Position numbers and translations under genes: made by a program. 64,000 nt of DNA, from positions 160,711-224,710 of the forward strand of contig JAZKCO010000001.1 of assembly GCA_040388055.1 (NCBI GenBank), written 5' to 3'. Under the pieces are notes generated by a model that was not told where the DNA came from, searched no databases, and saw only the letters and a program-made list of their open reading frames with translations. Below are positions 1-36,180 of this stretch, one piece after another. Position 1 is the stretch's first letter, and each line of letters begins with the position of its first letter. Source of the stretch: Bacteroidota bacterium (GTDB lineage: Bacteria > Bacteroidota > Bacteroidia > Sphingobacteriales > Sphingobacteriaceae).

Positions 1-950
1 AGAACCTAACCTGGGAGAATTCTAAACAGCTGGATATTGGTATGAATGCTTCATTTTTTAACAGCAGAATAAATGTTGGATTTGATTATTATAAAAAGAG
101 AACAGAGAATTTGCTTTTTAGTATCGATATCCCCTCTACTTCAGGTTATGGAAGCGGTAAAGTCTTATTCAATACTGGGTCTTTATATAACAGAGGAATC
201 GAAGCCGACCTGTCTGCCGCCATTTTTACCAAAGAATTTAAATGGAATGTTATTGCCAATTTTTCAAAAAATAAATCCATTTTAACTTCCCTTGGCGAAT
301 CACCTGGAACAACAACCTTATTTGTTGGCCGTACCCCTGGTGCGAAACTTGGACAAACCTATTTAGGTATTTTCCATAATCAGCAAGAAATTACAGATTA
401 TGGTATTCAGCCGAGTGCAAAGCCTGGCGACATGAAGTTTGCAGATATAAATGGTGATGGAAAATTTACCGGCGCGGATCAGCTTCCAATTGGTTCACCC
501 ATACCAAAATATATTTTTGGCCTTACCAATACCTTTAATTACAAAAGATTTGAATTAACACTTTTTGTAGAATCTTCTGTTGGCCGCAATGGCGATGATA
601 TTGATTTATTAAATGATCCGGTAGACCTTACCAGTAACAAATACCGGAAGTTTATAAACATTTGGACACCTGGGAATACCGAAAACGCAACAGTACCTGG
701 GCCTGGAGTTAGTAATTATTCTTATTCTACATTTGATCTGGTTAACCGTAGTTATTATAAATTGCGTAACGCAAGATTAAGTTACTCGTTTTCTCCAAAG
801 CTGACAAAATTTGCAAGATCGGCATCACTCTATCTTTCTGGCCAAAATTTAATTACTATATCCAAGTATCCGGGATTTGATCCCGAAACGGGTAGCGTTG
901 GTTATCCTACTACAAGAACATTTGTACTAGGAGTAAATGTTGGATTTTAA
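1..950 (+). CDS. susC: SusC/RagA TonB-dependent outer-membrane receptor, C-terminal part (5' end outside window)
   Basis: Frame is open from nt 3 (NLTWENSKQLDIG, SusC 'LxWE' motif). It also has KFADINGDGK and YPGFDPE and ends in YPTTRTFVLGVNVGF with a terminal Phe. A SusD follows. The ORF-track start at 42 is an internal Met. Confidence 0.93.
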   Translation, partial: NLTWENSKQLDIGMNASFFNSRINVGFDYYKKRTENLLFSIDIPSTSGYGSGKVLFNTGSLYNRGIEADLSAAIFTKEFKWNVIANFSKNKSILTSLGESPGTTTLFVGRTPGAKLGQTYLGIFHNQQEITDYGIQPSAKPGDMKFADINGDGKFTGADQLPIGSPIPKYIFGLTNTFNYKRFELTLFVESSVGRNGDDIDLLNDPVDLTSNKYRKFINIWTPGNTENATVPGPGVSNYSYSTFDLVNRSYYKLRNARLSYSFSPKLTKFARSASLYLSGQNLITISKYPGFDPETGSVGYPTTRTFVLGVNVGF

Positions 951-967: not shown

Positions 968-2452
968 ATGAAAAAAATAACTTGTTTCTCTCTGCTTATG
1001 TTGTGCATGACTTGTTTTTCGTGCAAAAAAATTATAGAAGAAAAACCCTACAGTTTTTTGTCGCCCGAAAATTATTTCGAAAATGGTAACGATGCTTATT
1101 CGGCACTGATAGGTGCCTATAGTGGCTTAGGCGAAAACTCGTATTATTCGAGATTTATGTTCTTAATTCCAACACTGGTTTCAGATGAAAGTGCTAACAT
1201 AACCGGCGATGCAGCATCAAAGCAACAGGATGGCCTTAGTTATTCTTCTACATTAAGCTCATTTCTTACGCTCTGGCGTGCTATTTATGTAGATATTATG
1301 CGAACTAATGTTGTAATTGCCAGATTGCCTGATATTAAAATGGACGAGAAATTAAAACAGCAATACATTGCGGAAGCTAAATTTCTTAGGGCTTTAAACT
1401 ATTTTAACCTGGTTAGATTTTGGGGTGAAGTTCCATTGATGAAAAATGAAATCTTCAAAATGGAAGAGGTATATGTAGAAAAATCGCCCATCAATAATAT
1501 TTATAATTTCATAATCCAGGACCTGAAGGATGCAGCAATGGAATTGCCAAATAAAAACCTAAATGGAAGAGCCGGAAAAGGTTCTGCGCTCGCCCTGCTG
1601 GCTAAAGTTTATTTAACACGGGCATCTTCTACTGTAGCAGAACAAAGCGATTACCAGGATTGCGCATCATTGTGTAAGCAAGTAATTGCACTGCCTGAAT
1701 TTCATTTGATGGCTGATTTTCAAAAAGTCGTAGGTGCTGAGAATGAATTCAGTGCCGAATCTTTGTTCGAATGGAATGCCGACAGAGAAACAGGTGGTGG
1801 TTTTAGTAGTGTCGGGCAATTTGCACTACCAAGTGGGGTATTTGGGTTAGTTCCCGAAAATGCAACTGGCGAGAGTTATTTTGGTGCCGAAAGAACCTTT
1901 TATAATTCTTTTAATGCCAAAGATTATAGAAAAGAATCTACCTTTATTAATAGTGTAACGGATGCTAACGGAAATGTAATCAAATATACCAGCTGGCAAT
2001 TTCCATACCCAAGTCCGGCACCTAAATTCATTAATAAAACCTCTACAACCCGCTCGGGGTATGCTTTTAGCGCAAACTTTATTGTGCTTCGCTTGGCAGA
2101 TGTGTATTTAATGCGTGCCGAGGCACTGAACGAAATTGGCGGACCGGCAACTGAAGATGCTTATGACCTTATTAATGCGATTAGGGCCAGGGCGAGAAAT
2201 CGTAATGGAAATCCGGTCGCTACTTTCCCCGCAAATCTTTCGGGGCTAAATAAAGATACTTTTCGTGATGCGGTGCTCGACGAAAGAAAGGTAGAATTGG
2301 CGTATGAAGGGCATAGGTGGTTCGATTTGATAAGAACAAAACGATTAGTCGGTACAATTTCGAGCGCTAAAACAAAGCATTACTTATTTCCAATACCCAA
2401 TACCGAAATTCTTTTATCCAAAGGGAAACTTACTCAAAATGCCGATTGGTAA
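968..2452 (+). CDS. susD: SusD/RagB nutrient-binding lipoprotein
   Basis: Lipoprotein signal ending FSC-KK; SusD motifs AEAKFLRALNYFNLVRFWG, LRLADVYLMRAEA and ERKVELAYEGHRWFDLIR. Confidence 0.95.
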   Translation: MKKITCFSLLMLCMTCFSCKKIIEEKPYSFLSPENYFENGNDAYSALIGAYSGLGENSYYSRFMFLIPTLVSDESANITGDAASKQQDGLSYSSTLSSFLTLWRAIYVDIMRTNVVIARLPDIKMDEKLKQQYIAEAKFLRALNYFNLVRFWGEVPLMKNEIFKMEEVYVEKSPINNIYNFIIQDLKDAAMELPNKNLNGRAGKGSALALLAKVYLTRASSTVAEQSDYQDCASLCKQVIALPEFHLMADFQKVVGAENEFSAESLFEWNADRETGGGFSSVGQFALPSGVFGLVPENATGESYFGAERTFYNSFNAKDYRKESTFINSVTDANGNVIKYTSWQFPYPSPAPKFINKTSTTRSGYAFSANFIVLRLADVYLMRAEALNEIGGPATEDAYDLINAIRARARNRNGNPVATFPANLSGLNKDTFRDAVLDERKVELAYEGHRWFDLIRTKRLVGTISSAKTKHYLFPIPNTEILLSKGKLTQNADW

Positions 2453-2473: not shown

Positions 2474-3571
2474 ATGAGGAGACTATTGATTTATTGTTTA
2501 TTTGTTCTAGTATTAAACAGCCATATTGTTTATGCTCAAGTTCTTTTTGAAGAGAACACGGTATGGGCATTAGAGGCTGATGCTGGAATAGCTGAACACT
2601 TTGTTTACGGATTGGAGGTAGGCAATAACGGTGTAATTTTGGCCTTTTCGGAAGGACGTATCCGTGCTAACGATACCAGCCCGCATCATATTGTATTAAA
2701 ACGAAGCCTCGACAAAGGAAAGACCTGGCTGCCTTCTCAAATATTGGCCCAGAGTAACAATAACGAATGTTATGCTAACCCAACGCCGGTGAAAGATCCG
2801 GCCACCGGAAATATCACGCTTTTCTATGCACTAAATCTTAATAACGAACGTACAAAAGTCTTTTTCATCATAAGTAAAGATGAAGGATTAACCTGGAGTA
2901 AACCTCTTGAAATTACAGCACTTTTTAATTCAGATCCTCTCCTCAGACCATTTCATCTTCCTGGGCCAGGGCATGGAATTGCATTAAAGAATGGCCGATT
3001 AATCGTACAGGTATGGCATCGATTTTCTGTTAAATTACCTTTAGAGGAAAGAAGGTATGGCGTTTCTGTAATCTATAGCGACGATCAGGGGAAATCCTGG
3101 AAAGCCGGAGGGTATATGCCTTATAATAATTTATATCCGGCAAACGAATCGAGAATAGTAGAAACCAGCGATGGAAAAATAATATTAAATGGTCGCTATG
3201 CTACAGGAAAAGGGAACCAGTATCGTATTCTGACTTATAGTAACGATAATGGCTTAAACTGGTCGGAAGGAACTTATAGTTCATTCAGTACATTTACGCC
3301 TGTAGATGCCGGACTGAATAAGCTTACTATTGGCAGAAAGACTTACCAACTTTTTAGTTATCCTGCCGGACCTGGTAGAAACAACCTCATGATAAGTATA
3401 AGTGAAGATGAGGGGAAGACATGGCTAAAAAGCAAACTCATTGCCAAAGGACCTGTAAATTACTCAGATATAGCCATCCTTCCTGATCAGACAATTCTCG
3501 TTTTATATGGGAAAGGTAACCCTAAATATGTAGTAAATGCCAGATTTAATTTGGAATGGATTCTGAAATAA
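2474..3571 (+). CDS. GH33/BNR-repeat sialidase-fold protein lacking the RIP arginine
   Basis: Signal peptide; Asp boxes SLDKGKTW, SKDEGLTW, SDDQGKSW, SNDNGLNW, SEDEGKTW; PGPG, NE, NGR, GRNNL and NYSD motifs present; HFVYG where (Y/F)RIP is expected. Confidence 0.85.
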   Translation: MRRLLIYCLFVLVLNSHIVYAQVLFEENTVWALEADAGIAEHFVYGLEVGNNGVILAFSEGRIRANDTSPHHIVLKRSLDKGKTWLPSQILAQSNNNECYANPTPVKDPATGNITLFYALNLNNERTKVFFIISKDEGLTWSKPLEITALFNSDPLLRPFHLPGPGHGIALKNGRLIVQVWHRFSVKLPLEERRYGVSVIYSDDQGKSWKAGGYMPYNNLYPANESRIVETSDGKIILNGRYATGKGNQYRILTYSNDNGLNWSEGTYSSFSTFTPVDAGLNKLTIGRKTYQLFSYPAGPGRNNLMISISEDEGKTWLKSKLIAKGPVNYSDIAILPDQTILVLYGKGNPKYVVNARFNLEWILK

Positions 3572-3588: not shown

Positions 3589-6171
3589 ATGTTGAGATAT
3601 TTCGTAACCTGTTTTTTTGCATGCTTGTTTTTCAATATGGCTGCTGTAAATGCCCAAAGCGATGCGAATTGGTTCGTTTGGAAAGTACAAAAGAAATTGC
3701 CGGCTAAAAATGGATTGAGCGGAACAATTACCGGTATAAGTAATGGGGCACTTATTGTAGCTGGGGGAAATAATTTTGATAAACGCATCCAGGAAGGAGG
3801 AAAGAAACACATTTATAATGATATATATGTTTGCATAGATCCGGCCGCAGACAGTTTAGTTTGGATCAATGCCGGGAAATTGCCTTATCCCGTGGTCGAT
3901 GCTGCTACTGTATCCTTTAATAATCGATTATTGGTAATTGGTGGCTCGAATGGCAAAAAACCATACCGAAATGTGATCAGTTTAACCTGGAATAGAGACA
4001 CAAAAAAAGTTGATATTAATACAAACTATCCCAAGCTTCCTCAGGCACGTTCGGGGCTCTCTGCGATCATAACAAAAGAAAATAAGCTATATATTGCCGG
4101 AGGGAAATCTGCTGAAGATGCTCCGGGGAATAATTTTTGGTCATCAACATTAAATGCTAGCGGCGAAAAATTATCGACTTGGCAACAACTGCCAGATCTT
4201 CCCGGCGAAGGACGTTTTGGTGCGGCCTTGATCGCTCAGAATGATGGAGAATTTAATAGTATTTATCTTGCTGGTGGAAAATCGACCTCCACTTATTTAA
4301 CTGATGCCTATAAATTTACACCACATTACGGCGAGGTTAGTGTATGGACAAAAATAAAAGACTTGCCAAGACCAGCATTTTTTGCATCAGCAATGGCATA
4401 CGGTCAAAGTCATGCGCTTTTGTTTGGGGGTTCTGTTGGCCCTAGTGCTGAAGCTGCAATTGCTTTGGGAGACAAATATAAAATGGCCGACGATATTCTC
4501 GCTTACCATACCATTACCGATACCTGGATTACTGCCGGCTATTTGCCGCACGGCATTGCTGGTGCAACGGTTATCCAGGATAACGATAGAATAGAACTTA
4601 TAGGTGGTGAATTAAGACCCGGAGTAAAATCTGATTTGATAATGTCTGGCAAACCAGTTATTGCCATTCAGAAGAGCAAGTTTGGGATAATTGACTATGC
4701 TACGGTAATTATATACCTTATTATTCTTGCAGGAATTAGCTTCTATTTTTCAAGAAATAAAAACACCACAGATGATTATTTACGTGGCGGTCAGCGCATT
4801 CCTTATTGGGCAGCAGGGATTAGTGTAATGGCAACACAGGTTAGTGCAATTGGATTTATGAGTATTCCGGCAAAATCGTATGCTACAAACTGGAGCTATT
4901 TTGCGGGAGTTTGGACCTGGTTTCTTGTTGTGCCTATTGTAACCTGGGCATTTATTCCTTTCTTTCGAAAGCTCGACGTTACCAGTGCTTACGAATATTT
5001 AGAAAGGCGTTTTGATAAATGGACCCGTTTATTTTCTGGGGTAATCTACTGTTTATATCAGCTTGGCAGAATGGGTTTGGTTATTTATCTGCCTGCTGTG
5101 GCATTATCTGCTGTTTCACCAATCGACACCTTTACCTGTATATTAATTATGGGTGTTTTAAGCACACTGTACACTATTGTTGGTGGAATTGAAGCGGTAA
5201 TATGGATTGAAGTTATACAAGCAGGGCTACTCATGGGCGGTGCTATTATCTGTGTAATACTTGCAGTAATCGGTATCGATGGGGGGGTGTCAGAATTTGT
5301 AGATGTAGCGGTAACCCATAATAAATTTAGCTTTGGATCTCTGAATCTCGATTTTACTTCTTCAGCATTAGGAGTTATCCTTATCGGCAACATATTTAAC
5401 AGGTTTGGTAATTTAATTTCAGACCAGGCTATCGTACAACGTTACATGACCACTAAAAATGTAAAAGAAGCAAAAAAATCGCTATGGATTGACGTGGCTG
5501 TATCTGTACCCTGGGCCATTGTTATTTATTTACTTGGAACAGCGCTATATGTTTTTTATAAATCTAATCCTCAAATGCTCAATCCTGTAACTCCTACAGA
5601 TGGGATTTTACCACAATTTATTGCACAAAGAGCACCATCTGGATTAAGCGGGCTTATTATTGCTGCAATTTTTGCGGCATCGATGTCGACAGTTGAAAGC
5701 CATATTCACAGTCTCGCAACCATATTTACCACCGATTTTTACGCAAGATTTGCAAAATCAGTTACCGAAAAAAAGAAGCTAAATTTTGCCAGATGGACTA
5801 CAGGTATTTTAGGCCTGGTAGCTACATTGTTAGCTTTATTACTGCTTACGGTTGATATTAAATCTATTCTCGATGTATTTACAGAGCTTACAGGTTTATT
5901 TATCGGCGCTGCTGGCGGTTTGTTCCTTTTAGGCATTTTTACCGAAAAGACAAATAGCACTGGTGCGTTAATAGGCGCTGTTGCAAGTTGTCTCCTCCTT
6001 TACTTTATCCAGACACAAACACATATTAATTTTTGGCTCTACAGCGCGGTAGGTTTTGCCAGTTGCTTTATTGTCGGCTATTTAAGCAGTTTCATGCTGA
6101 AAGGACGCCGGCAACTGCAGGGGCTTACCATTTATACATTAAACGAAAAGATATTTAATAAAGAAAAATAG
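3589..6171 (+). CDS. Fusion of a Kelch-repeat NanM-like mutarotase (about aa 25-360) and a sodium:solute symporter (SiaT-like, about aa 365-860)
   Basis: Signal peptide, then Kelch repeats (LIVAGG, LLVIGG, LYIAGG, IYLAGG, GGELRPG). SSS motifs follow: DYLRGG, FMSIPAKSY, SAYEYLERRF, YTIVGGIEAVIW, DQAIVQRY, GLIIAAIFAASMST. One continuous frame. Confidence 0.9.
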   Translation: MLRYFVTCFFACLFFNMAAVNAQSDANWFVWKVQKKLPAKNGLSGTITGISNGALIVAGGNNFDKRIQEGGKKHIYNDIYVCIDPAADSLVWINAGKLPYPVVDAATVSFNNRLLVIGGSNGKKPYRNVISLTWNRDTKKVDINTNYPKLPQARSGLSAIITKENKLYIAGGKSAEDAPGNNFWSSTLNASGEKLSTWQQLPDLPGEGRFGAALIAQNDGEFNSIYLAGGKSTSTYLTDAYKFTPHYGEVSVWTKIKDLPRPAFFASAMAYGQSHALLFGGSVGPSAEAAIALGDKYKMADDILAYHTITDTWITAGYLPHGIAGATVIQDNDRIELIGGELRPGVKSDLIMSGKPVIAIQKSKFGIIDYATVIIYLIILAGISFYFSRNKNTTDDYLRGGQRIPYWAAGISVMATQVSAIGFMSIPAKSYATNWSYFAGVWTWFLVVPIVTWAFIPFFRKLDVTSAYEYLERRFDKWTRLFSGVIYCLYQLGRMGLVIYLPAVALSAVSPIDTFTCILIMGVLSTLYTIVGGIEAVIWIEVIQAGLLMGGAIICVILAVIGIDGGVSEFVDVAVTHNKFSFGSLNLDFTSSALGVILIGNIFNRFGNLISDQAIVQRYMTTKNVKEAKKSLWIDVAVSVPWAIVIYLLGTALYVFYKSNPQMLNPVTPTDGILPQFIAQRAPSGLSGLIIAAIFAASMSTVESHIHSLATIFTTDFYARFAKSVTEKKKLNFARWTTGILGLVATLLALLLLTVDIKSILDVFTELTGLFIGAAGGLFLLGIFTEKTNSTGALIGAVASCLLLYFIQTQTHINFWLYSAVGFASCFIVGYLSSFMLKGRRQLQGLTIYTLNEKIFNKEK

Positions 6172-6177: not shown

Positions 6178-7107
6178 ATGAATAAAGTTATTGCATTAGA
6201 TAGCGGCTTAAGTAAGTTCCGGCCCCTGGATAAAATTATCTGTTATGATGATTTTGATAAAGGAATGAACGGGTGGCTGGACCTGCATCCAAATTATGTA
6301 GGTAAGGATTTTAATACGCTTCGCTATAGCCATGTAGATAAAACACAATGGGGACCAATTATGCTCAGTTCGGCAAGTTTCAGGCTTGTGGGCACGCATG
6401 GTTCTATGGATGGGACCTATTCGCTAAAACTTGCTACCAGGCCTGCAGCAAATTCATATACCGAAGCACCTGCCCCAGGCAGCCTCTCGCATGGAATTAA
6501 AAGGCTTACTACCCATTTACCTAAAGGACAACGACAATTTGAAATGTGGTATGCTTATACACCCGAACAAGACAGGCAGGGTTTAAGCGAACAGGCTATG
6601 CGGGCATTTGGATGTTTTTTTGACATTCAGGATGATGATTACAGGTATTTTATTGGAGCTCGTTACTTAAATGCCGTAAACGGCGAAATGGTTAGAAAAT
6701 GGCAGATTTTTCAAGCAAAAGATACCAGCGATTTAGAATGGGCCTATGGTATTGAAGACGATTGGTGTAAGCATGGAATTGATGCAATGTGGTATGGCGA
6801 ACGTTATAATGACGGTTCGACCGACGGTTTCGCCTGGATCCCAGATGGTTATCAGGATCTTTGTTACAATGAAAGCGATGATAAAATTAATTGGGGATAC
6901 CTGCGGTTGCTGATAGATACAGAAAAAAGAGAATATGTAGAACTTCAATCAGGAAGTAAAACCTTCGATTTAAGAGGGATAAAACCTACCCTTACGGCCC
7001 CTTATGCCAGAATTAAAGGCTTATTTAACCCTAGTATCTGGGTCGAAAATGACACCGACAGGCGTGTGTTTTTGTTTGTTGATTCAATTGTAATTTCAGG
7101 AGAATGA
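6178..7107 (+). CDS. Uncharacterised cytoplasmic protein, DUF6772-like
   Basis: 309-aa ORF inside the operon, no signal peptide. Motifs YDDFDxGxNGW, GTHGSMDGTYSLKLATRP and RVFLFVDSIVIS resemble the DUF6772 family as I recall it (not searched). Confidence 0.7.
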   Translation: MNKVIALDSGLSKFRPLDKIICYDDFDKGMNGWLDLHPNYVGKDFNTLRYSHVDKTQWGPIMLSSASFRLVGTHGSMDGTYSLKLATRPAANSYTEAPAPGSLSHGIKRLTTHLPKGQRQFEMWYAYTPEQDRQGLSEQAMRAFGCFFDIQDDDYRYFIGARYLNAVNGEMVRKWQIFQAKDTSDLEWAYGIEDDWCKHGIDAMWYGERYNDGSTDGFAWIPDGYQDLCYNESDDKINWGYLRLLIDTEKREYVELQSGSKTFDLRGIKPTLTAPYARIKGLFNPSIWVENDTDRRVFLFVDSIVISGE

Positions 7108-7442
7108 GACATTTTTATGCATCGGCCGTAGAGCGCCGGATTACAAAGAGCGGTATCATCCAATCTTACCCTATGGAAGCTGGTTGGGCTTCGGAAGCTA
7201 TTTTTTTTGTAAATGTTGAGAATATAGTGGGCAAAGGTGCGCGATTAACTGCATCTGTTCAGATTTCTCCTGATGGTATAAATTGGATAGATGAAGGAAC
7301 AATTTTTCCGGTTATCGAAAAGGAAGGACATTATTACGTGAAGGTTAATCATTTTGGAAATTGGCTCAGAATAAATGCACAGATGGAAGGTGGAGCTACG
7401 AATACAATAACACTTTCAGTCCATCTACATTTAAAATCATAG
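7104..7442 (+). CDS. Small uncharacterised beta-rich cytoplasmic protein
   Basis: 112 aa; ATGA overlap (7104-7107) with the upstream gene; motifs EAGWASEAIFF, VQISPDGINWIDEG and HFGNWLR. Confidence 0.8.
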   Translation: MRHFYASAVERRITKSGIIQSYPMEAGWASEAIFFVNVENIVGKGARLTASVQISPDGINWIDEGTIFPVIEKEGHYYVKVNHFGNWLRINAQMEGGATNTITLSVHLHLKS

Positions 7443-7476: not shown

Positions 7477-9435
7477 ATGCGATCATTTAGCAACCAAATT
7501 ATACTCTTCTTTTTCCTGTTAGTTGGCACTCAACTATGTTTTGCACAAAATAAGGCTGAGTTTACCGTTAAGAATAATTGGGTTGAATCCATTTTTGAAA
7601 TCAAAAATACGGATCAACCAGTTGACAAAAATTTATCCAAACAAAAAGACATCGAATTATGGCAATTCTTGAGGAAGAATTTTAATCGTACAAAAGACCT
7701 GCAAGAAATGAGCTGGGAAGAAAGAGATAAAATATGGGATTTTCAGGATGATAGCTTTTCTTTAAAAAAATTAGGTCAAAATTACATGAAGGCCCTCAAT
7801 GTATCGTATAATGAAAGAGGAATAAAACCTGTTGTCTTTCAAAATGAGTTTAAAACTTTAGCTGATGTTTATAAACTGCGGGAAATTTATCTTCAATCCA
7901 GAGCAAAGGAATATGTTATACTTACTCCAAAACCACTTTTATCCCCTAAAATTAACGGGCCTTCTATTTTTGGAGCGCGTCCCGGGCATCCTATTCTATA
8001 TAAAGTCCCCGTTACAGGTCAGCAACCCCTTAAAATTACCATTTCGGGATTACCCGAAGGCTGCAAATTTAATGAGAAGACGGGCATAATTACAGGGGCA
8101 TTGCAAAATGCCGGAACTTATAAGCTTATCATAAACGCAAGTAATATATATGGAAAGGACTTAAAAACATTTATATTAAAGATAGGTAGTGAAATTTCAT
8201 TAACACCCCCGATGGGTTGGAATAGCTGGAATTGTTTTGCGAGCGATGTAACTGCAAAAGATATTCAGGCTGCAGCCGAATCGATGGTTAGCAGTGGCCT
8301 TGCAAACTACGGATGGAGTTATATTAATATCGACGATTGCTGGATGAACAGGCCTGCCGAAGATGATCCGATTTTCAAAATCAATGATATAATTACAGAA
8401 AAATTTGTATCAAAAGAGAATCTAAGAAAACGACTTAGCAGGATCAGGTTTAATGAAAGTAAACTGGTTGGCAATGTAAGAGATAAAAATGGCAACATTT
8501 TGTCGAATATAGATTTTCCCGACATGAAGGGTTTAACTAATAAAATTCACGACCTGGGACTTAAAACAGGTATTTATATTTCGCCGGGGCATGTAACTTG
8601 TCAAAACTATATTGGAAGCTTGTACCACGAAGAGCAAGATGCCAAACAATTTGCCGAATGGGGTTTTGATTACCTTAAATACGATTGGTGTGGTTATAGT
8701 CAAATTGTTTTCGATAATAAACTCGAAACCTTAAAAAAGCCTTATTTAGTAATGAGAGATGCACTTAACAAGGTAGATCGGGATATTATATATAGTATTT
8801 GTCAATATGGTAAAGGAGAGGTATGGGAATGGGGAAAAGAAGTTGGAGGTAATTTGTGGCGAACCACGAGCGATATTCGCGATACTTGGGAGAGCATTAC
8901 AAAGCTTGGGTTTGGCTCGAATGGCAAAGAAGCTTATGCTGGCCCTGGCCATTGGAATGATCCCGATATGCTGGTTGTTGGATACGTAGGCTGGAGTAAA
9001 AATTTGCGGCCGACCTATCTTTCTCCTAACGAACAATATACCCACGTCTCTTTGTGGAGCTTGTTATCAGCTCCCCTTATTATTGGTGCCGATTTGACCA
9101 AATTAGATGATTTTACATTAGGATTATTATCCAATAGCGAGGTTTTGGCTGTCGATCAGGACATGCTTGGGAAGCAAGCCAAAAAAGTACTGGATTCCAA
9201 CAACATCCAGGTGTGGCAAAAAGAATTGGCAGACGGCTCTTTCGCTATAGGGATATTTAATACTGGAGAAGTGCCGGCTGATTATAAACTCGAACTAAAC
9301 GCGATCAATTTAAAAGGAAATTATACGGTACGTGATCTTTGGTTGCAGAAAGATTTAAAAGAAAATGTTTCTCAATTTAGTTCGACCATTAACAGGCATG
9401 GGGTAAAATTATTGAAATTAACTCCGGTATTATGA
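7477..9435 (+). CDS. GH27 alpha-galactosidase-family glycosidase with putative Ig domain and N-terminal extension
   Basis: TPPMGWNSWN, NIDDCW, LKYDWC (nucleophile), WRTTSDI (acid/base), GHWNDPDML; He_PIG-like LPEGCKFNEKTGIITG; signal peptide. Confidence 0.92.
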   Translation: MRSFSNQIILFFFLLVGTQLCFAQNKAEFTVKNNWVESIFEIKNTDQPVDKNLSKQKDIELWQFLRKNFNRTKDLQEMSWEERDKIWDFQDDSFSLKKLGQNYMKALNVSYNERGIKPVVFQNEFKTLADVYKLREIYLQSRAKEYVILTPKPLLSPKINGPSIFGARPGHPILYKVPVTGQQPLKITISGLPEGCKFNEKTGIITGALQNAGTYKLIINASNIYGKDLKTFILKIGSEISLTPPMGWNSWNCFASDVTAKDIQAAAESMVSSGLANYGWSYINIDDCWMNRPAEDDPIFKINDIITEKFVSKENLRKRLSRIRFNESKLVGNVRDKNGNILSNIDFPDMKGLTNKIHDLGLKTGIYISPGHVTCQNYIGSLYHEEQDAKQFAEWGFDYLKYDWCGYSQIVFDNKLETLKKPYLVMRDALNKVDRDIIYSICQYGKGEVWEWGKEVGGNLWRTTSDIRDTWESITKLGFGSNGKEAYAGPGHWNDPDMLVVGYVGWSKNLRPTYLSPNEQYTHVSLWSLLSAPLIIGADLTKLDDFTLGLLSNSEVLAVDQDMLGKQAKKVLDSNNIQVWQKELADGSFAIGIFNTGEVPADYKLELNAINLKGNYTVRDLWLQKDLKENVSQFSSTINRHGVKLLKLTPVL

Positions 9436-11096
9436 GCTTAAAACAGTTATGCCTATTTTTTCTACTTATTGTGGGAAGTAAGGCTTTTGCACAATCAGCC
9501 AGTAAACAAAAAGATACTAGCCTCTTTAATCTTGCCGAAAAAGCAACAGTTTCATCTCCATACGCTCAAAAATTCCCGCAACGAAAGATTACTAATCTAA
9601 TTGATGGAAAGTCAGATAATAACCCTAATAACGGCTGGACCCCAAATATTTCGAACGTAAATAGCAAAAATCCGGTCTTGATTGCTTTAAGTTGGGAAAA
9701 ACCTGTCCGTATTGAACAGATTGATTTGTCGTGGTTAAAGAATTGGTATTTTACTGATTATACATTTGCTACATGGAACGGCCCCGAACCAGTAATTTTA
9801 ACGGCTCCACCAACCCGTTATAAACACACCAATGTTTTTACTTCGGGGCAGGAAGGTTATCATACTTTCCGTATCCCGGCAATGGTTATTTCTCCTAAAG
9901 GAACGATTTTTGCCTTTTGCGAAGGCCGGAAAAACAATAATCGCGATGTTGGTGCTATCGATTTATTGGTTAAACGAAGCACCGACCAGGGGGCAACCTG
10001 GGGGGCAGCTCAGGTAGTTTATGGCGAAAAAAGTGAAGTTACCATCGGGAATCCAGTTCCAATAGCAGATAAAACAGGTAATATTCATGTTGTTTTCTGC
10101 AAAGACAGTAAATCGGTGCTGTATTCGAAAAGTAACGACGATGGTCTCACGTATTCATCTCCAGCAGATATTACTAATGCGATTGATGAGCTTTGTAAAA
10201 ATGCAGGACTTCAATGGGATCAGGTATGGACAGGCCCTGGTCATGGATTAGAAACAAGCAAGGGCCGTTTAATTATCCCGTTAAAAGTTACCAGAAAAGA
10301 AACAGAAGGTATAAAGAGAAGGGTTGGAATTATCTATAGCGATGATGGCGGAAATACCTGGCTTCCAGGCGGGATTGTAACACCATCGATTGGTGAAATG
10401 AGTGAATGTTCGGTATTCGAAAAAGCAGATGGAACTTTATTAATAAATATGCGCTGGCACGATGGACGTTATCGTGCGGTTAGTGAAAGTGCTAACGGTG
10501 GCCTAACCTGGAGTGTTCCAATTGCAGCAAAGCAACTTCCCGACCCTGGTTCGGAAGGAAGTATTATTAGATATTCTTCTGATAAAGATGACCAACGAGT
10601 TTTGTTTTCTAATCTTAATAATCAGGAAGTGGGAACGGTAAACAGAAAAAACCTAACCTTAAGGCTAAGTAAGGATGATGGGAAAACCTGGAATTCGGGT
10701 TTGCAAATTGTTCCGGGTCCGGCTGGATATTCGGATATTGCCATTACCAAAAAAGGTAAAGTTGCAATCCTTTTCGAGAATGGAACCGCAAGTTATTCGG
10801 ATCAACTTACGTTTTGCCTGATTGATCCCAATGAGCTTGAACTACCTAAAAAAGGAGCATTAACAAAAGAAAGCTATGAGGTAAATGTTGCCCGGTCGTT
10901 TATACAAAATAAGAACTGGAATCTTATTGAAAAGATTTCAAATAATGAGGCTAAGCCTAAAATATACACCCTAAAAAAACCTATCGTAACTAATACGCTG
11001 TTTATTTCTGTTTCGGGAACACACCAGCCCGATGGCCTTGCCTACTTTCAGGAAATCAGAGTTCTTGGCCACGAAAATAATGATGAAAAGAAATAA
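9432..11096 (+). CDS. GH33 sialidase flanked by two halves of an F5/8-type (discoidin/CBM32-like) domain
   Basis: FRIP, EGR, Asp boxes (STDQGATW, SNDDGLTY, SDDGGNTW, SKDDGKTW), SE, NMR, RKNL and GYSD all present; ATGA overlap with the GH27 gene. Confidence 0.9.
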   Translation: MSLKQLCLFFLLIVGSKAFAQSASKQKDTSLFNLAEKATVSSPYAQKFPQRKITNLIDGKSDNNPNNGWTPNISNVNSKNPVLIALSWEKPVRIEQIDLSWLKNWYFTDYTFATWNGPEPVILTAPPTRYKHTNVFTSGQEGYHTFRIPAMVISPKGTIFAFCEGRKNNNRDVGAIDLLVKRSTDQGATWGAAQVVYGEKSEVTIGNPVPIADKTGNIHVVFCKDSKSVLYSKSNDDGLTYSSPADITNAIDELCKNAGLQWDQVWTGPGHGLETSKGRLIIPLKVTRKETEGIKRRVGIIYSDDGGNTWLPGGIVTPSIGEMSECSVFEKADGTLLINMRWHDGRYRAVSESANGGLTWSVPIAAKQLPDPGSEGSIIRYSSDKDDQRVLFSNLNNQEVGTVNRKNLTLRLSKDDGKTWNSGLQIVPGPAGYSDIAITKKGKVAILFENGTASYSDQLTFCLIDPNELELPKKGALTKESYEVNVARSFIQNKNWNLIEKISNNEAKPKIYTLKKPIVTNTLFISVSGTHQPDGLAYFQEIRVLGHENNDEKK

Positions 11097-11146: not shown

Positions 11147-12085
11147 ATGATGAAAATAGAAGGCCTCATTACTGCGACTTTTTGCCCATTTAATCCAGAT
11201 GGATCCCTAAATATCTCTCTAATACCGATAATTGTAGAAAAAGCAATAGCAGATGGCTTAACCGGCGTGTTTGTTTGTGGTACAAATGGAGAAGGCCCCA
11301 ATCTCACTATTGAAGAAAGAATGTCGATTGCTGAAGAGTATGTTAAAGTAGTCGACAATAGAATTTTAGTTATCGTACACGTTGGTCATAACTCGATAGC
11401 CGAGTCGAGGAAGCTGGCCAAACATGCAGTTGCTATTGGGGCTGATGCCATTTCTTCGGTCGCCTCCTTTTATTTTAAATTAAGTTCTGTTTACAATTTA
11501 GTGGAAAGCATAGCAGCAATAGCTGCTGCAGCACCAGACCTTCCATTTTATTATTATCATATCCCAGCACTTACTGGTGTGGCCATGGATATGGTCGAAT
11601 TTTTAAAACTAGGCGAAGAGTTAATCCCGAATTTAGCTGGAATAAAATATACTGCCTCTACACTTCATGAGTATCAGGCCTGCCTAAATTATAAGAATGG
11701 AAAGTTTGATATCTTATTTGGGTATGATGAGATGCTGCTAAGCGCATTATCGGTTGGCGCAAAGGGTGCAGTAGGGAGTACTTATAATTTTGCTGCTGGG
11801 TTATACCTGCAAATCATGAACCTTTATCGCCAAGATGAGAAAGAAGCTGCAAGAAAACTTCAACTTACTGCAGTAGAAATGGTTCGGTGTTTGGTACAGT
11901 TCCCTTCTCTTCCGGCCCAAAGGGCTATTATGAAAATGATTGGACTTGACCTAGGCACCTGCCGGCTGCCCTTGAAAGAACTTTCAGAAAAGGAATCTAA
12001 CCTATTAAAAGCTGGTTTGGAGGCTATTGATTTTTTTGCGATCGTAGAAAATTGCCGCGGGCCGGTAAAGAAAGTCTTGTTTTAA
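11147..12085 (+). CDS. DHDPS/N-acetylneuraminate lyase-family aldolase
   Basis: GTNGE, YYYHIP (catalytic Tyr), GIKYT (Schiff-base Lys), FGYDE sugar-binding motif, GAVGSTYN. Confidence 0.9.
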   Translation: MMKIEGLITATFCPFNPDGSLNISLIPIIVEKAIADGLTGVFVCGTNGEGPNLTIEERMSIAEEYVKVVDNRILVIVHVGHNSIAESRKLAKHAVAIGADAISSVASFYFKLSSVYNLVESIAAIAAAAPDLPFYYYHIPALTGVAMDMVEFLKLGEELIPNLAGIKYTASTLHEYQACLNYKNGKFDILFGYDEMLLSALSVGAKGAVGSTYNFAAGLYLQIMNLYRQDEKEAARKLQLTAVEMVRCLVQFPSLPAQRAIMKMIGLDLGTCRLPLKELSEKESNLLKAGLEAIDFFAIVENCRGPVKKVLF

Positions 12086-29069: not shown

Positions 29070-32000
29070 ATGAAAAAATTTTACCAAACAAATGTTAGTA
29101 AACTGTTGCTAACAGTAGCTATGAGCTTCATCATGCTTATCGCTAATGCCCAAAGCAAAAATGTTACTGGGCGTGTAACCGACTCGTCGGGAGGTGGCGT
29201 GCCAAGTACAGGCATCATCATTAAAGGAACTAAAGTATCCGCTATCACAGATGCTTCAGGAAAGTATGTAATTCCGGCAAAAAGCGGAGATATCTTAGTT
29301 TTCTCTTTTATTGGTTACATTACACAAGAGGTTACTGTGGGTAACCAGCAAACGATTAATGTACTATTAAAAGAAGACAATACTGCGCTCGACGAAGTTG
29401 TTGTTTTAGGTTATGGTTCGATTAAGAAGTCGAAACTTACAGGCTCAGTATCCAAGCTGGATCCTAAGGTTTTAGAAACAGGTATACGATCTAATCCTGC
29501 ATCGGCCTTAGCCGGAACAATACCTGGGGTAAGAGTACAACAGACTTCTGGTCGCCCCGGCTCGGTACCCAATATTGTTTTGCGTGGGGGTACCAGTTAT
29601 GGCGGCGGTGGTTCACCATTGGTTGTGGTCGACGGTTTATTAAGATCGGGTTTTAGCGATATTAACCAGGACGACATAGAATCTATAGAAGTATTAAAAG
29701 ATGCATCGGCAACGGCTATTTATGGTGCCCGAGCAAGTAATGGAGTAGTTTTAATTACGACTAAAAGAGGTAAAGCTGGGGTATCTAATATCTCTCTTAA
29801 ATCGAAAGTAGGAATCAATAAATTAAATATCCCTTTCGAATTTTTTGGTGCGGAAGAATATCTTTACTGGTCTAGAAAGGCTATCGAAACTTCTGGGTTA
29901 TATGATGCCAGCCGCTTAAGTCAGTTAAATACTACAGGTCCATTTGGTACTGGAAACTTATATAAAGATACCAATGGTGTGCCTTACGATGGAAATGTAA
30001 ATGCCAGTGCCGTATGGAGTCCAATGTTTAGAAATTCGACTAATGAAGAATTGCTAACAAAAGGATGGAAATCTATGCTCGATCCAGTTAAAACCAATGC
30101 AGCTGGTGCTTACGATCCTAATGGAACTAATAAAGAAATTATCTATAAAAGTTTTAACTACCAGGATTATGCCCTTAGGCCCTATAGCTTAACTCAGGAT
30201 TATAACCTCAATGTAACTGGCGGGAATGAAAATGGCAAATATTATGCTGGTTTAGGTAGCTATGAAGAGAAAGGAATGCCAATTAATACCTTTTACAAGC
30301 GTTTAACCTTTGTTTTAAATGGCGATTACAAAGTAAAACCTTGGCTAACCTCTTCTTCGAGCTTAAACTTCGCTAATGCCAAGTGGCGGGATGCCGTTAC
30401 AAACAGTGAAGGAAATTACTTAACCCGTTCTTTGGGTGCGCCACCAACCATGCGCGGTACAAACGAAAAGGGAGATTTATTGGTAGGTAGAGATCTTGCA
30501 GATGGTAATCCAGCGGTAAATGATGATAAATTTCTGCGCGACAATAGTACCGATAAATTTACTTTGTCTCAGGCGTTTGTAATAGATTTCCTTAAAAATC
30601 TGAACTTAAAAGTAAGTGGTAACCTATTCTACGACGAAGGTTATTACGAGTCGTTTAATAAAGATTATTTATCGAGCCCTAATAATATTAATAGAACCCG
30701 TAGTTCAAGTGCTTCATCAGATAAAGACTTAAGTCAGACTTATAATGCGGTTTTAAATTATAATACTAATATCGCTTCAAAACACAGCATCAATGTAATG
30801 GTCGCTTCCGAATATTACGATATTTATCAAAAGGGGCTTTCGGCATCGGGTTCTGGTGCACCAACAGACGATTTTATGGATCTCCAATACACAAGTTCTG
30901 ATAAGGACAGAAGAAGCATTGACACCTATCACCAACGTCAACGTATTCTGTCGTTCTTTGGTCGTGCTACCTACGATTACGATGAAAAATACTTATTAAC
31001 AGCTACTTTCAGACGCGATGGTTATTCGAGATTGTTAAATAACCGCTGGGGTAATTTCCCAGGTATTTCGATAGGTTGGAATATTCATAACGAAGACTTC
31101 TTTAAACCATTTACTAATGTAGTTAATACCTTAAAATTAAGAGCTAGTTATGGTGCAAATGGTAACGTAGGGGGTGTAGGTGCCTATACTTTACAAGGTA
31201 ACTATAGTTCAAATAAATATAATGGCAGCATCGGCTATTTAGCGGGCAACCCTTATACACCTAACTTATTATGGGAAAGTTTAATTACAAAAGAAGTTGG
31301 CTTAGATGCCCGCTTGTTTAATAAATTGGATGTCTCATTAGCCTATTATTACAGAACAACAAGCGATAAAATTGCCTCCCTAACATTTCCTGTAACTGCA
31401 GGTATTTCTTCAATAAGTACTAACAATGGTAATATGCAGAATAAAGGGGTAGAGATAGATTTGAATTATAATGCTTTCAGAAATAAAGATTGGGCGGTAA
31501 ACATTAACTACAATATGGCCTATAATGCTAATAAAGTATTAAAATTACCATCTAATGGCCTTCTTAATAACAGACAAGGTGGCTTCCAGGTTTACGATCC
31601 GAACACAAAAGAACTGATTTGGGTAGGCGGAATACAGGAAGGACAAGATCCAAATGTGGCTTATGCTTACCAAGCTGATGGAATTATTAGAAATAAGGCC
31701 GACTTAGATTCTTATGCATTACAGTTAAGAGATTTATTGGGTGCTAAAACTTTAGTGCATCCCGATGTATATAATGCATTGCCAGCTTCGCAAAAAAACT
31801 TGTATTATCCAATCGCCCTTGGTGATGTGAAATGGAAAGATGTGAATGGAGATGGTATTATTAATAGTTTTGATAGAGTTTACCAAGGACGCACAATACC
31901 ACGTTTTACAGGTGGTTTTGGCGCCAATGTGAAATGGAAAGATTTCTCTTTAAGTACTCGTCTAGATTATGCACTTGGGTTTGTACAATATGATGGTGCA

Positions 32001-32390
32001 ACTGCCTGGTTTGTAAGTAATGCACAAGGAACATTTAATACCACTACTGCAATTCGCGATACCTGGTCGCCAACTAACCCAAATGCCAAATATCCAACCT
32101 ATTATTGGGCAGATCAATTATACAAAAATAATACCTTCCGCGAGTCGAGTATGTTTTATCAAAAAGGAGATTATCTGGCATTAAGAGAGGTTAATTTAAC
32201 CTATTCTTTGCCTGCTAAAATTGCCAGCAGACTAAAAAGCCAGGGGGTAAATTTATCGGTAAGCGGTCAGAACCTTACTTATTTCAGCAAATCTACTTTA
32301 TACTCTCCAGAGAGCGGAAGTACTCCAATAGGTGCTGGTGGTTATCCATTACCACGTACGATCATTTTTGGAGCTCAATTTATATTTTAA
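29070..32390 (+). CDS. susC: SusC/RagA TonB-dependent receptor, NanO-like
   Basis: Full-length SusC: EVVVLGYG, IESIEVLKDASATAIYGARASNGVVLITTKRG, terminal PRTIIFGAQFIF; paired with a NanU-like SusD in a nan cluster. Confidence 0.95.
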   Translation: MKKFYQTNVSKLLLTVAMSFIMLIANAQSKNVTGRVTDSSGGGVPSTGIIIKGTKVSAITDASGKYVIPAKSGDILVFSFIGYITQEVTVGNQQTINVLLKEDNTALDEVVVLGYGSIKKSKLTGSVSKLDPKVLETGIRSNPASALAGTIPGVRVQQTSGRPGSVPNIVLRGGTSYGGGGSPLVVVDGLLRSGFSDINQDDIESIEVLKDASATAIYGARASNGVVLITTKRGKAGVSNISLKSKVGINKLNIPFEFFGAEEYLYWSRKAIETSGLYDASRLSQLNTTGPFGTGNLYKDTNGVPYDGNVNASAVWSPMFRNSTNEELLTKGWKSMLDPVKTNAAGAYDPNGTNKEIIYKSFNYQDYALRPYSLTQDYNLNVTGGNENGKYYAGLGSYEEKGMPINTFYKRLTFVLNGDYKVKPWLTSSSSLNFANAKWRDAVTNSEGNYLTRSLGAPPTMRGTNEKGDLLVGRDLADGNPAVNDDKFLRDNSTDKFTLSQAFVIDFLKNLNLKVSGNLFYDEGYYESFNKDYLSSPNNINRTRSSSASSDKDLSQTYNAVLNYNTNIASKHSINVMVASEYYDIYQKGLSASGSGAPTDDFMDLQYTSSDKDRRSIDTYHQRQRILSFFGRATYDYDEKYLLTATFRRDGYSRLLNNRWGNFPGISIGWNIHNEDFFKPFTNVVNTLKLRASYGANGNVGGVGAYTLQGNYSSNKYNGSIGYLAGNPYTPNLLWESLITKEVGLDARLFNKLDVSLAYYYRTTSDKIASLTFPVTAGISSISTNNGNMQNKGVEIDLNYNAFRNKDWAVNINYNMAYNANKVLKLPSNGLLNNRQGGFQVYDPNTKELIWVGGIQEGQDPNVAYAYQADGIIRNKADLDSYALQLRDLLGAKTLVHPDVYNALPASQKNLYYPIALGDVKWKDVNGDGIINSFDRVYQGRTIPRFTGGFGANVKWKDFSLSTRLDYALGFVQYDGATAWFVSNAQGTFNTTTAIRDTWSPTNPNAKYPTYYWADQLYKNNTFRESSMFYQKGDYLALREVNLTYSLPAKIASRLKSQGVNLSVSGQNLTYFSKSTLYSPESGSTPIGAGGYPLPRTIIFGAQFIF

Positions 32391-32400
32391 GAAGACAGAC

Positions 32401-33975
32401 ATGAAAAAAATAATAATCGGCTTTGCCGCACTAGCATTAAGCGTAACGTTTACGGCTTGTAATAAATTACAATTAGCACCCGAAGACTATTTTGCGAGCG
32501 AAAGTTTTTGGAAAAATGCAGCTCAGGTAGATGGTGCAATGATTGGCATCCACAGCCAACTTAGAGGGAACCAGTTTTTGCTATTTTCTTTAGGAGAGCT
32601 AAGAGGGGGAACTTTAAAAACCGGGACAAGTTTTACAGGAACGGCTTCCTTAAACTCGGCTGGCTATATTAATCAGGATGTTAGAGAATCGAGCCCGGGC
32701 TTTAGTTCGTGGGGCGGTCTTTATAACACCTCTATATTCCAGGTTAACAATTTTATTTATCAGGTAGAAAAAGCAGACTATTTATCGGCTGCCGATAAAG
32801 GCTACTACCTAGGTCAGGCTTATGGTTTAAGAGCATATTATTACTTTTACCTTTACCGTACTTACGGAAGAGTACCATTAGCTAAAGAGCCTACCGTATT
32901 ACTTACCGATCCTAAATCGGCAAAAGATATGTACCTGCCAAGAGCCAAAACCGATAAAGAAACCTTAGACTTTATCAAATCTGATATCGATAAATCGGTA
33001 ACCAATTTTGGTGGAAATTATACGACTAAATTTCAAAAAGCACAGTGGTCATTAGCCGCCACTCAAATGCTAAAAGCCGAAGTTTATTTATGGTCGGCAA
33101 AAGTGAAAATTGATGGCGCCGCACCTACAACTACAGCTGCCGACTTAGGCGTTGCAAGAGCTGCCTTGGAAGATGTTATCCCGAAATATAGCTTGCAAGC
33201 TAATTTTGCAAATGTATTTAAATCGGCCAGTGTGCCAGCAAGCAAAGGCAATAGCGAAATTATCTTTGCATTAAGATACCAGCAGGGCGAGGCTACTAAC
33301 TCATTTAGCCAGTTCATTTATGCAATTACCGACCCGTTAAGTGGTTATGTTGATGATAAAGGTGTGGCCATTCCGGCCGACCCATTGCAAGTAAACGGTG
33401 GAGGTACCATTATCCGTTACGAGTATAAAATAGAGGCTTACGATCAATACGAAACGGCCGATACCCGGGCGAATGCTACTTTCTTAAATTTTAATAAAGG
33501 AACTATTCATGCCACCAACCTACGTAAATTTATGGGTACTGTTGTAGATGGAGCACGCAGCTTTTCAGACGACTATCCTATTTACCGTTTAGCCGATGCC
33601 TATTTATTATTGGCAGAGGTAAAAAACAAACAAGGTCAGGACCCAACTGCAGAAATTATGATGGTGCGTAACCGTGCCTATGCACCAAGTGCAGCCCCTC
33701 AATTTGTAAATGGAACTTTTGAAGCTAATGAACTAGCAATTTTTACCGAAAGAAGCAAAGAATTTGTTGCCGAAGGAAAACGCTGGTGGGATTTACGCCG
33801 TATGCAAGATGCCTCAGGAAATCCATTGGTATTTAGAAGAGATCTCCCTTTAGTAGGTGTTTTAGATAATGTTGCAGGTCAGAATCATAAAATTATCCTG
33901 CCAATAGATTTAAATACGCTTACACAAGACGAAAGTTTAGAAGGCGATCAAAATCCTGGTTACCCTGGTACTTAA
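32401..33975 (+). CDS. nanU: SusD-family lipoprotein, NanU-like sialic-acid binding protein
   Basis: The ATG at 32401 gives lipobox FTAC. LAPEDY...FW...IHSQLRG...LGELRGG resembles Bacteroides NanU as I recall it. Also YRLADAYLLLAE and EFVAEGKRWWDLRR. Confidence 0.8.
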   Translation: MKKIIIGFAALALSVTFTACNKLQLAPEDYFASESFWKNAAQVDGAMIGIHSQLRGNQFLLFSLGELRGGTLKTGTSFTGTASLNSAGYINQDVRESSPGFSSWGGLYNTSIFQVNNFIYQVEKADYLSAADKGYYLGQAYGLRAYYYFYLYRTYGRVPLAKEPTVLLTDPKSAKDMYLPRAKTDKETLDFIKSDIDKSVTNFGGNYTTKFQKAQWSLAATQMLKAEVYLWSAKVKIDGAAPTTTAADLGVARAALEDVIPKYSLQANFANVFKSASVPASKGNSEIIFALRYQQGEATNSFSQFIYAITDPLSGYVDDKGVAIPADPLQVNGGGTIIRYEYKIEAYDQYETADTRANATFLNFNKGTIHATNLRKFMGTVVDGARSFSDDYPIYRLADAYLLLAEVKNKQGQDPTAEIMMVRNRAYAPSAAPQFVNGTFEANELAIFTERSKEFVAEGKRWWDLRRMQDASGNPLVFRRDLPLVGVLDNVAGQNHKIILPIDLNTLTQDESLEGDQNPGYPGT

Positions 33976-33986
33976 TACCTTACTTA

Positions 33987-34030
33987 AAAAAGAGTGAGCA
34001 GTAGCATTTTACTGCTTGCTCTTTTATTTT
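33987..34030 (+). terminator. Intra-operon stem-loop / intrinsic terminator after susCD
   Basis: AAAAGAGTGAGCAGTA-gcattt-TACTGCTTGCTCTTTT with two G:U pairs, followed by a T-rich run. Confidence 0.7.
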
Positions 34031-34051
34031 TCTTATTATAAATTAGCGAAA

Positions 34052-36176: not shown

Positions 36177-36180
36177 GCTA

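Follow-up and report, generated by a model that had tools for sequence, protein, structure and literature searches.

The arginine triad that grips the C1 carboxylate of the substrate is regarded as defining and essential in sialidases, and in these enzymes the arginine of the FRIP motif (Arg1) forms a salt bridge with a C-terminal Glu. Representative GH33 exo-alpha-sialidases are NedA of Micromonospora viridifaciens (1eur/1eus) and NanH of Tannerella forsythia. Here we describe P0001, a protein of the GH33 fold that lacks Arg1, whose gene lies near the start of a 64,000-nucleotide stretch of DNA (hereafter the window; positions 160,711 to 224,710 of contig JAZKCO010000001.1, assembly GCA_040388055.1) from a Bacteroidota bacterium of the family Sphingobacteriaceae. 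P0001 shares with NedA and NanH the six-bladed propeller with its five Asp-boxes, the Asp acid/base, the Tyr/Glu pair, two triad arginines (the second and the third) and the arginine of the EGR motif that contacts O4. However, it has no FRIP motif, carrying Phe43 at the Arg1 position and Gly346 at that of its Glu partner, and it differs further by a set of private residues (H71-H72, H161, W181-H182-R183 and R193). Its gene is linked to a non-canonical transporter, a lyase and a set of DUF proteins, and not to NanE, NanK or esterase genes.

Other described systems resemble P0001 in part. The GH58 endosialidase endoNF of phage is a propeller that cleaves sialic acid and retains only two arginines of the triad, but it belongs to a different family, is inverting and endo-acting, and lacks both the Tyr nucleophile and the Asp that P0001 possesses. 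Kdn-specific sialidases, namely KDNase Sm of Sphingobacterium multivorum and fungal GH33 enzymes such as AfKdnase, are of the sialidase type and act on the non-N-acylated nonulosonic acid Kdn. KDNase Sm is reportedly an inducible periplasmic enzyme of a soil bacterium of the Sphingobacteriaceae, the family where many genes of the P0001 type occur. Unlike P0001, the fungal Kdnases have a complete arginine triad (PMC11727334), and their structures 2xcy and 7p1b matched P0001 weakly (phmmer, 1e-7 over about 60 residues). The C-terminal Kdo hydrolase of BT1013, from Bacteroides thetaiotaomicron, can be likened to P0001 by its description, as a sialidase-related enzyme for a non-sialic ulosonic acid encoded in a polysaccharide utilization locus (PUL), where it acts on chain C of rhamnogalacturonan II (RG-II). 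Unlike P0001, it is fused to a GH78 domain and belongs to a very large RG-II locus.

From the comparisons presented below, we consider that P0001 is probably an active, soluble periplasmic exo-glycosidase of the sialidase type that releases a 2-keto-3-deoxy sugar acid other than N-acetylneuraminic acid (Neu5Ac), and that it represents a distinct and widespread GH33 sub-clade, in which Arg1 and its Glu partner have mostly given way to Phe, Tyr or His and to Gly. The data show the fold, the residue pattern and how it is conserved, the linkage of the genes and the signatures of transporter and lyase; activity, location, identity of the sugar and geometry of the pocket are all points that we infer.

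An earlier note on this DNA had placed the sequence HFVYG of P0001 at the (Y/F)RIP site, with Phe43 in place of the arginine. Both registers that we obtained agreed with this assignment. When P0001 was aligned by MAFFT with the window's other three BNR_2 proteins (9432-11096, 37438-39033 and 43381-44544), HFVYG fell in the columns of FRIPA, YRIPG and YRIPA, and phmmer against PDB 1eur gave an identical register, YRIP standing above HFVY. The same alignment bore out a second replacement, that of the DxxDI(D/N) stretch by DTSPHH, which occupies the place of D..(x)ID(L/V)/DIN in the three other proteins. The roles of the remaining residues were assigned from D237, E407, R423, R487, Y518 and R231 of T. 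forsythia NanH, in which R231, the equivalent of R62 in P0001, contacts O4 (PMC9472817). The Tyr nucleophile, its Glu partner and the Asp acid/base of a canonical exo-alpha-sialidase (EC 3.2.1.18) are present as Y330, E225 and D67, while the arginine triad is incomplete, with R241 and R302 as the only members kept. In addition, and beyond what the earlier note had noticed, a strand of blade 6 ends in (F/Y)E in the three Arg-bearing paralogues versus Y345-G346 in P0001.

The conservation of this substitution among orthologues, a check that the earlier note had proposed, was followed in the 120 best homologues of P0001 (41-68% identity), which came from Niabella, Pedobacter, Chitinophaga, Olivibacter and actinomycetes. 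Position 43 was F in 99 of these proteins, Y in 12, H in seven, N in one and R in one. On the other hand, R62, D67, E225, R241, R302 and Y330 were each invariant (120/120) at a mean column identity of about 35%, in agreement with the claim that the two other arginines, the Glu and the Tyr nucleophile are kept. Since a residue other than Arg occupies position 43 in 119 of the 120 homologues and the catalytic set is present in all of them, the substitution goes beyond chance, and on this alignment the loss of Arg1 is a family trait and not an accident. Genome scanning extended the HFVYG-type relatives to Bacteroidota, Actinomycetota, Bacillota, Acidobacteriota and Chloroflexota; the HFVYG genes are distributed in Sphingobacteriaceae and in soil actinomycetes, and Sphingobacterium is among the genera that carry them (L033, L035).

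To place P0001 among its relatives, we used an alignment of 76 GH33-type proteins from the surveyed loci. Forty-seven of them lacked both Arg1 and the Glu, 20 had both, and two had Arg1 without the Glu; the remaining seven lacked Arg1 but kept the Glu, five of these being a very divergent side family and one a frameshifted copy. The Arg-less proteins grouped in one clade of 53 rows (SH-aLRT 100), 49 without Arg1 and four with it, the latter coming from the same kind of locus (L018 and L039, with the Glu; L045 and L048, without it). Private to this clade are H42, (P/A)-H71-H72, H161, W181-H182-R183 and R193, and the W181-H182-R183/R193 set was present in 48 of 54 Arg1-less rows versus 4 of 22 Arg1-bearing rows. 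A profile search of 1.84 billion representatives returned many "WHR" clusters of the form YRIPG...YE and many with HFVYG, YHVFG or HHVYG...YG. The existence of WHR clusters and clade members with both Arg1 and the Glu implies, as far as sequences can tell, that the private residues are older than the loss of the pair. For the same reason the R-to-F change alone is, on these alignments, not a specificity switch, because WHR, PHH and R193 also occur in relatives with Arg1 and the Glu that belong to the same kind of locus.

Two groups within the profile matches stood apart. In a sub-branch with the motifs FHQFG ... HGT (P0164, P0178, P0182, P0185, P0217 and P0233) Arg1 is missing and Ala occupies the position of the Tyr nucleophile, making these proteins candidates for true pseudo-enzymes or mechanistic variants. 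Giant chains with two to four GH33-like propellers were also among the best matches: P0121 (1547 residues), P0122 (2155 residues), P0161, P0172, P0188 and P0203.

The assignment of P0001 to GH33 agrees with both the sequence and the fold of the family. Its Pfam BNR_2 match (5.8e-33) scored 114.9 bits against a cut-off of 31.4, and phmmer matched it to solved bacterial sialidases at about 2e-23. The sequence contains five Asp-boxes (SLDKGKTW, SKDEGLTW, SDDQGKSW, SNDNGLNW and SEDEGKTW). An AlphaFold2 model built on 45 homologues (pLDDT 94.7, pTM 0.91) predicted a six-bladed beta-propeller, the fold of GH33, and Foldseek matched it to GH33 sialidases, including that of M. viridifaciens (1eur), with a TM-score of 0.82 and an E-value of 1e-24.

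The layout of the pocket was deduced from the DSSP strands of this model together with the rule that Asp-boxes lie in the C-D loops and mark the face opposite the active site. In blade 1, F43 and Y45 would stand at the top of strand A, R62 at that of strand B and H71-H72 at that of strand C, with D67 in the loop joining B to C. G346 is placed at the top of strand B of blade 6, adjoining position 43, and Phe43 and Tyr45 seem to take up the vacated Arg1/Glu site. In blade 3 the tops of strands A and B would be occupied by H161 and W181-H182-R183, respectively, and R193 would follow in the next loop. R183 and R193 are predicted to be on the side of the pocket opposite the carboxylate, which in sialidases faces C5-C9 of the sugar. 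We also considered these two residues as a triad arginine that had moved and rejected the idea as unlikely, given their position on blade 3, opposite the carboxylate by the topology of the model, and their presence in clade members that keep Arg1.

P0001 starts with a type I signal peptide, and the Bacteroidota homologues show the same xAQ signal-peptide ends, also without a lipobox. Because the signal lacks a lipobox, P0001 is predicted to be a soluble periplasmic protein and not a surface lipoprotein; in Bacteroidota a signal of this type suits a soluble enzyme that works in the periplasm on oligosaccharides after their import. The gene starts 21 nucleotides past the stop codon of susD, in line with the claim that it directly follows this gene. 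P0001 has the attributes of a PUL-encoded periplasmic exo-glycosidase: its gene stands beside susC/susD, and the protein is predicted to be secreted and not a lipoprotein.

The unit to which P0001 belongs reads GntR, SusC, SusD, P0001, a NanM-like mutarotase fused to an SSS transporter (NanM::SSS), DUF6772, DUF6385, a GH27-like alpha-galactosidase, an Arg-bearing GH33 and a NanA-like lyase (Table 1). The closest relative (68% identity) has an identical gene order with the transporter missing. The open reading frames of 57 loci with HFVYG-type genes were clustered by all-against-all BLASTP; the neighbours found were SusC (24 loci), GntR/FCD (21, the same regulator family heading the operons), NanM::SSS and DHDPS (19 each), DUF6772 (18), SusD and DUF6385 (16 each), sulfatase (15) and FAD_oxidored (PF12831; about 12). 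An Arg-bearing GH33 was also present in only about 13 of the 57, and about three quarters lacked one within 10 kb. A recurring order in Chitinophaga, Pedobacter and Parapedobacter was GntR, a weak BNR_2 protein in some cases, SusC, SusD, HFVYG, NanM::SSS, DUF6772 and DUF6385, with no Arg-bearing GH33 nearby. In actinomycetes the HFVYG-type protein has about 577 residues, and the neighbours of its gene were DHDPS, LacI, FAD_oxidored and a transporter of the Opp-type ABC class.

This 3.56-Mb genome encodes no BNR_2 proteins other than the four of the window, and P0001 is 29-32% identical to the genuine-looking GH33s among them. A canonical Neu5Ac PUL is present separately at 29070-46544 of the window, with SusCD, NanA, NanM, MFS, a GH33 with a NanH-type N-domain, a GDSL/SASA sialate esterase, an AGE epimerase, EamA, a second GH33 and GH20. 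As this complete Neu5Ac locus exists elsewhere, the locus of P0001 very probably serves another acid sugar. We also asked if genomes with the HFVYG operon lack enzymes processing N-acetylmannosamine, which gave no discrimination: AGE-family epimerases occurred in 12 of 12 and the NanE matches were weak.

The linked transporter provided a further indication. NanM::SSS fusions constitute the SiaF clade of sialic acid transporters (PMC8461474), and the SSS domain of the fusion in the window matched SiaT of Proteus mirabilis (5nv9) at 1e-106. The ligand residues of SiaT are T58, S60, T63, F78, G81, Q82, R135, F243, N247 and Q250 (PMC5931594); the corresponding residues in the window are Q, S, G, Y, G, V, R, N, R and N, amounting to the changes T58Q, T63G, F78Y, Q82V, F243N, N247R and Q250N. 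This signature was identical in 12 of 12 orthologues adjoining HFVYG genes. The carboxylate ligands S60 and R135 are retained, the hydrophobic patch for the N-acetyl methyl group (F78 and F243) is polar, and an Arg is gained at 247. A polar N-acetyl pocket argues against Neu5Ac as the cargo, judging by these aligned positions. The NanM part of the fusion carries GELRPGVK, which reads GELRPGVR in most orthologues.

The lyase of the locus matched solved Neu5Ac lyases at 1e-66 and retains the Schiff-base lysine (GIKYT) and the GYDE motif, which contacts the C7-C9 tail. It has GTNGEG (Asn47, codon 11285-11287) versus GSTGEG in the canonical NanA encoded at 34016-34981, and Asn stands at the same place (GSNGEG) in the actinobacterial DHDPS lyases linked to HFVYG genes.

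Together, these data suggest the following route. The adjacent SusCD pair would import oligosaccharides, from which P0001 would free a sugar acid of the sialic-acid type, a 2-keto-3-deoxy acid distinct from Neu5Ac. The neighbouring SiaF-like fusion would mutarotate and import the free sugar, the NanA-like lyase would cleave it, and the DUF6772 and DUF6385 proteins may act somewhere in the cytoplasmic part. Hydrolysis by P0001 would be retaining, Tyr330 and Glu225 forming the nucleophile pair and Asp67 serving as acid/base; only Arg241 and Arg302 would grip the C1 carboxylate, and the His- and Arg-rich surface of the clade (H71, H72, H161, W181-H182-R183 and R193) would line the remainder of the pocket. 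We favor an active enzyme because the catalytic set is strictly conserved, the protein is predicted to be targeted to the periplasm, and it is often the sole GH33-type protein of its locus with the full Asp/Glu/Tyr set. The presence of a mutarotase-transporter and a lyase suggests that what is released is the free form of a 2-keto-3-deoxy sugar acid bearing both a carboxylate and a polyol tail.

Our leading guess for this sugar is Kdn, since it carries no N-acyl group and since it is known from cell-wall polymers of soil actinomycetes. A further reason is that Sphingobacterium, a genus with HFVYG genes, is reported to possess a sialidase and an aldolase that are both specific for Kdn (PMC10017367). 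A broader proposal, which we hold tentatively and as somewhat less than an even chance, is that an undescribed, widespread pathway for a non-Neu5Ac ulosonic acid, most likely Kdn from soil microbial cell-wall polymers, has its missing bacterial glycosidase in the HFVYG/WHR clade, and that this clade could include the never-cloned KDNase of Sphingobacterium. If this were the case, the components of the pathway would be a sialidase variant with two arginines, a SiaF-type transporter and an aldolase, both dedicated to this use, and the DUF6772/DUF6385 pair, and a GH33 active site would be able to work without the FRIP arginine. A conserved clade that is without Arg1 and its Glu partner but retains all the other catalytic residues implies either a different way of holding the carboxylate or a different substrate. 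With its divergent transporter and lyase and the two DUF proteins, the clade makes up a complete candidate "soil sialic acid" pathway, and it offers a gene candidate for bacterial Kdn-type (or Kdo-type) hydrolases, which would be tools for glycan analysis. In the literature searches we found no paper describing an Arg1-less GH33 clade or DUF6772.

Several points weigh against P0001 being an active enzyme for a Kdn-like acid. A characterized member of the clade was not found in the literature searched. Mutation of the FRIP arginine, R212, inactivates the canonical GH33 NanH of T. forsythia (PMC9472817), and the two-arginine activity proposed here is deduced from conservation only. In three dimensions, a compensating basic residue may occupy the Arg1 site of the modeled pocket. 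The co-loss of Arg1 and the Glu corresponds to only two or three independent transitions, for which a sign test on the tree is underpowered, and it is given here as counts with no p-value. Sulfatases and FAD_oxidored proteins, in 15 and about 12 of the 57 loci, are not explained by a simple Kdn pathway. The GYDE motif of the lyase fits the glycerol tail of Kdn or of Neu5Ac-like acids, and a modified Neu5Ac may be the substrate. Finally, a link of this lyase to the Kdn aldolase of Sphingobacterium through "Asp50" was tried and dropped, as the linked lyases have no Asp near position 50 and carry Asn47, in GTNGEG, instead.

The unexplained sulfatases also bear on an unlikely, though serious, alternative: that P0001 hydrolyzes glycosides of an eight- or seven-carbon ulosonic acid (Kdo or Dha), or of an ulosonate with an extra anion such as a sulfate or a second carboxylate, Arg1 being dispensable because of another ring geometry or charge and the additional Arg and His residues binding the second charge. 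The two clade-invariant arginines and four to five histidines that the model places on the active-site face would suit this substrate, as would the Arg gained by the transporter at SiaT position 247. Some loci contain genes for an enolase-superfamily dehydratase, a 2-hydroxyacid dehydrogenase and an RraA-like protein suiting acid-sugar catabolism, and a sialidase-type Kdo hydrolase has been reported, BT1013 (PMC13501991). However, R183 and R193 also occur in the members of the clade that keep Arg1, both the lyase and the SSS domain closely resemble genuine Neu5Ac proteins (at the E-values given above), with GYDE retained in the former, and the loci are small, without the many enzymes that RG-II requires.

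That P0001 is an ordinary Neu5Ac exo-sialidase, in which a neighbouring residue replaces Arg1 with no effect on specificity, seems improbable to us. All the remaining sialidase residues are present, the identity to the genuine-looking GH33s of the genome is 29-32%, and NCBI labels the homologues "sialidase family protein". Nevertheless, the genome already contains a full Neu5Ac locus with two Arg-bearing GH33s, the linked transporter lacks the hydrophobic N-acetyl pocket of SiaT, the Glu partner has been lost together with Arg1 and their site appears to hold aromatic residues, and the FRIP arginine is essential in NanH (PMC9472817).

The earlier note had interpreted the pocket as either remodeled, for a different ulosonate or for a lactone or anhydro form, or as that of a non-catalytic binding partner. 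Remodeling for a different ulosonate is the part that is supported, by a conserved change in the clade, the invariant Asp, Glu, Tyr and two arginines, the module for uptake and lysis of a sugar acid and the non-Neu5Ac signature of the transporter. Pseudo-enzymes often arise by losing an essential arginine, and the few distant clade members without the Tyr nucleophile listed above (P0164, P0178, P0182, P0185, P0217 and P0233) could be taken in the same sense. Even so, we give little credence to a non-catalytic glycan-binding protein assisting the SusCD pair or the second GH33: the Asp, Glu, Tyr and two arginines are invariant among 120 otherwise divergent homologues, a lipoprotein signal is absent, an Arg-bearing GH33 is missing within 10 kb at about three quarters of the loci, and in most loci no GH33-type protein besides that of the P0001 type has a complete Asp/Glu/Tyr set.

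Lactone and anhydro forms fit poorly with the mutarotase domain fused to the adjacent transporter, which requires a free anomeric centre, and another reaction on the sialidase scaffold (an intramolecular trans-reaction or elimination yielding an anhydro or dehydro compound, or the hydration of such a compound) is therefore very doubtful; to our knowledge, the known intramolecular trans-sialidases also retain the full triad. What speaks for it is that in Gram-positive loci the gene is linked to a PF12831 FAD-dependent oxidoreductase and an Opp-type ABC transporter, loosely like the route through 2,7-anhydro-Neu5Ac, where Neu5Ac is regenerated by an oxidoreductase (nanOx is mentioned in PMC8461474). 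A pyruvate-ketal hydrolase was dropped, given that the linked transporter and lyase are closely related to genuine sialic-acid proteins.

Table 1. Features of P0001 and its locus. Positions are those of the window, except for those preceded by a locus name.
Feature	Position	Strand	Basis or remark
SusC-like TonB-dependent transporter, C-terminal part	3..950	+	Full gene starts upstream of the window
SusD-like protein	968..2452	+	Pfam
P0001, GH33-fold propeller protein, Arg1-less HFVYG/WHR clade	2474..3571	+	365 residues; Pfam, MAFFT, phmmer, AlphaFold2, Foldseek
Type I signal peptide (MRRLLIYCLFVLVLNSHIVYA/Q cleavage)	2474..2536	+	Read from sequence; lipobox absent
H42-F43-V44-Y45-G46 replacing (Y/F)-R-I-P-(A/G); Phe43 at Arg1 position	2597..2611	+	MAFFT, phmmer
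Phe43 codon, TTT	2600-2602	+	Translation
R62 (EGR), D67 (acid/base equivalent), clade-specific H71-H72	2657..2689	+	MAFFT, homologue conservation
Clade-specific W181-H182-R183 and R193	3014..3052	+	Invariant in alignment of homologues; topology from DSSP strands of model
Glu225 (NES), partner of Tyr nucleophile	3146..3148	+	MAFFT, homologue conservation
Arg241 (NGR), second triad arginine	3194..3196	+	MAFFT, homologue conservation
Arg302 (GRNN), third triad arginine	3377..3379	+	MAFFT, homologue conservation
Tyr330 (NYSD), nucleophile equivalent	3461..3463	+	MAFFT, homologue conservation
Gly346, at Glu of the YE motif in Arg1-bearing GH33s	3509..3511	+	Alignments
NanM-like mutarotase fused to SSS transporter (SiaF-type), altered substrate-site signature	3589..6171	+	Pfam, sequence comparison
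DUF6772 protein	6178..7107	+	Pfam
DUF6385 protein	7104..7442	+	Pfam
GH27-type alpha-galactosidase-like enzyme with He_PIG domain	7477..9435	+	Also in closest relative's locus
Second GH33, complete Arg triad (FRIPA)	9432..11096	+	Pfam, MAFFT
N-acetylneuraminate-lyase-like aldolase (DHDPS family), GTNGEG for GSTGEG	11147..12085	+	Pfam, sequence comparison
GntR/FCD regulator	L059:12711-13394		About 2.3 kb upstream of window start, same genome (contig 1)
Full-length susC	L059:13662-16661		Directly downstream of GntR/FCD regulator

Some of the surveyed loci showed additional gene families. In Niabella the HFVYG gene is accompanied by SusCD, sulfatases and two other GH33-like proteins; the loci L004, L007, L010, L017, L038, L041 and L051 contain two further GH33-like families, one of them of about 636 residues with RIQAPA replacing RIP, and one to four sulfatases, with no other GH families. 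This composition may point to a sulfated glycan with a high content of ulosonic acids. The PF12831 FAD-dependent oxidoreductases, mostly from actinomycetes with the Opp-type ABC transporter, were found in L012, L015, L022, L028, L031, L045 and L048, and at L001:13920-15251. Finally, a second sialidase-like family of about 376 residues, with a weak BNR_2 match (34.6 bits), is encoded between the GntR gene and susC (L046:4252-5382). It occurs also in the Chitinophaga/Pedobacter operons L019, L021, L024, L025, L032, L036, L040, L007 and L008 and is absent from the genome of the window; its members have no RIP motif and are characterized by the motifs LYNGQPT, CEPE, GDRH and DCGYSG.

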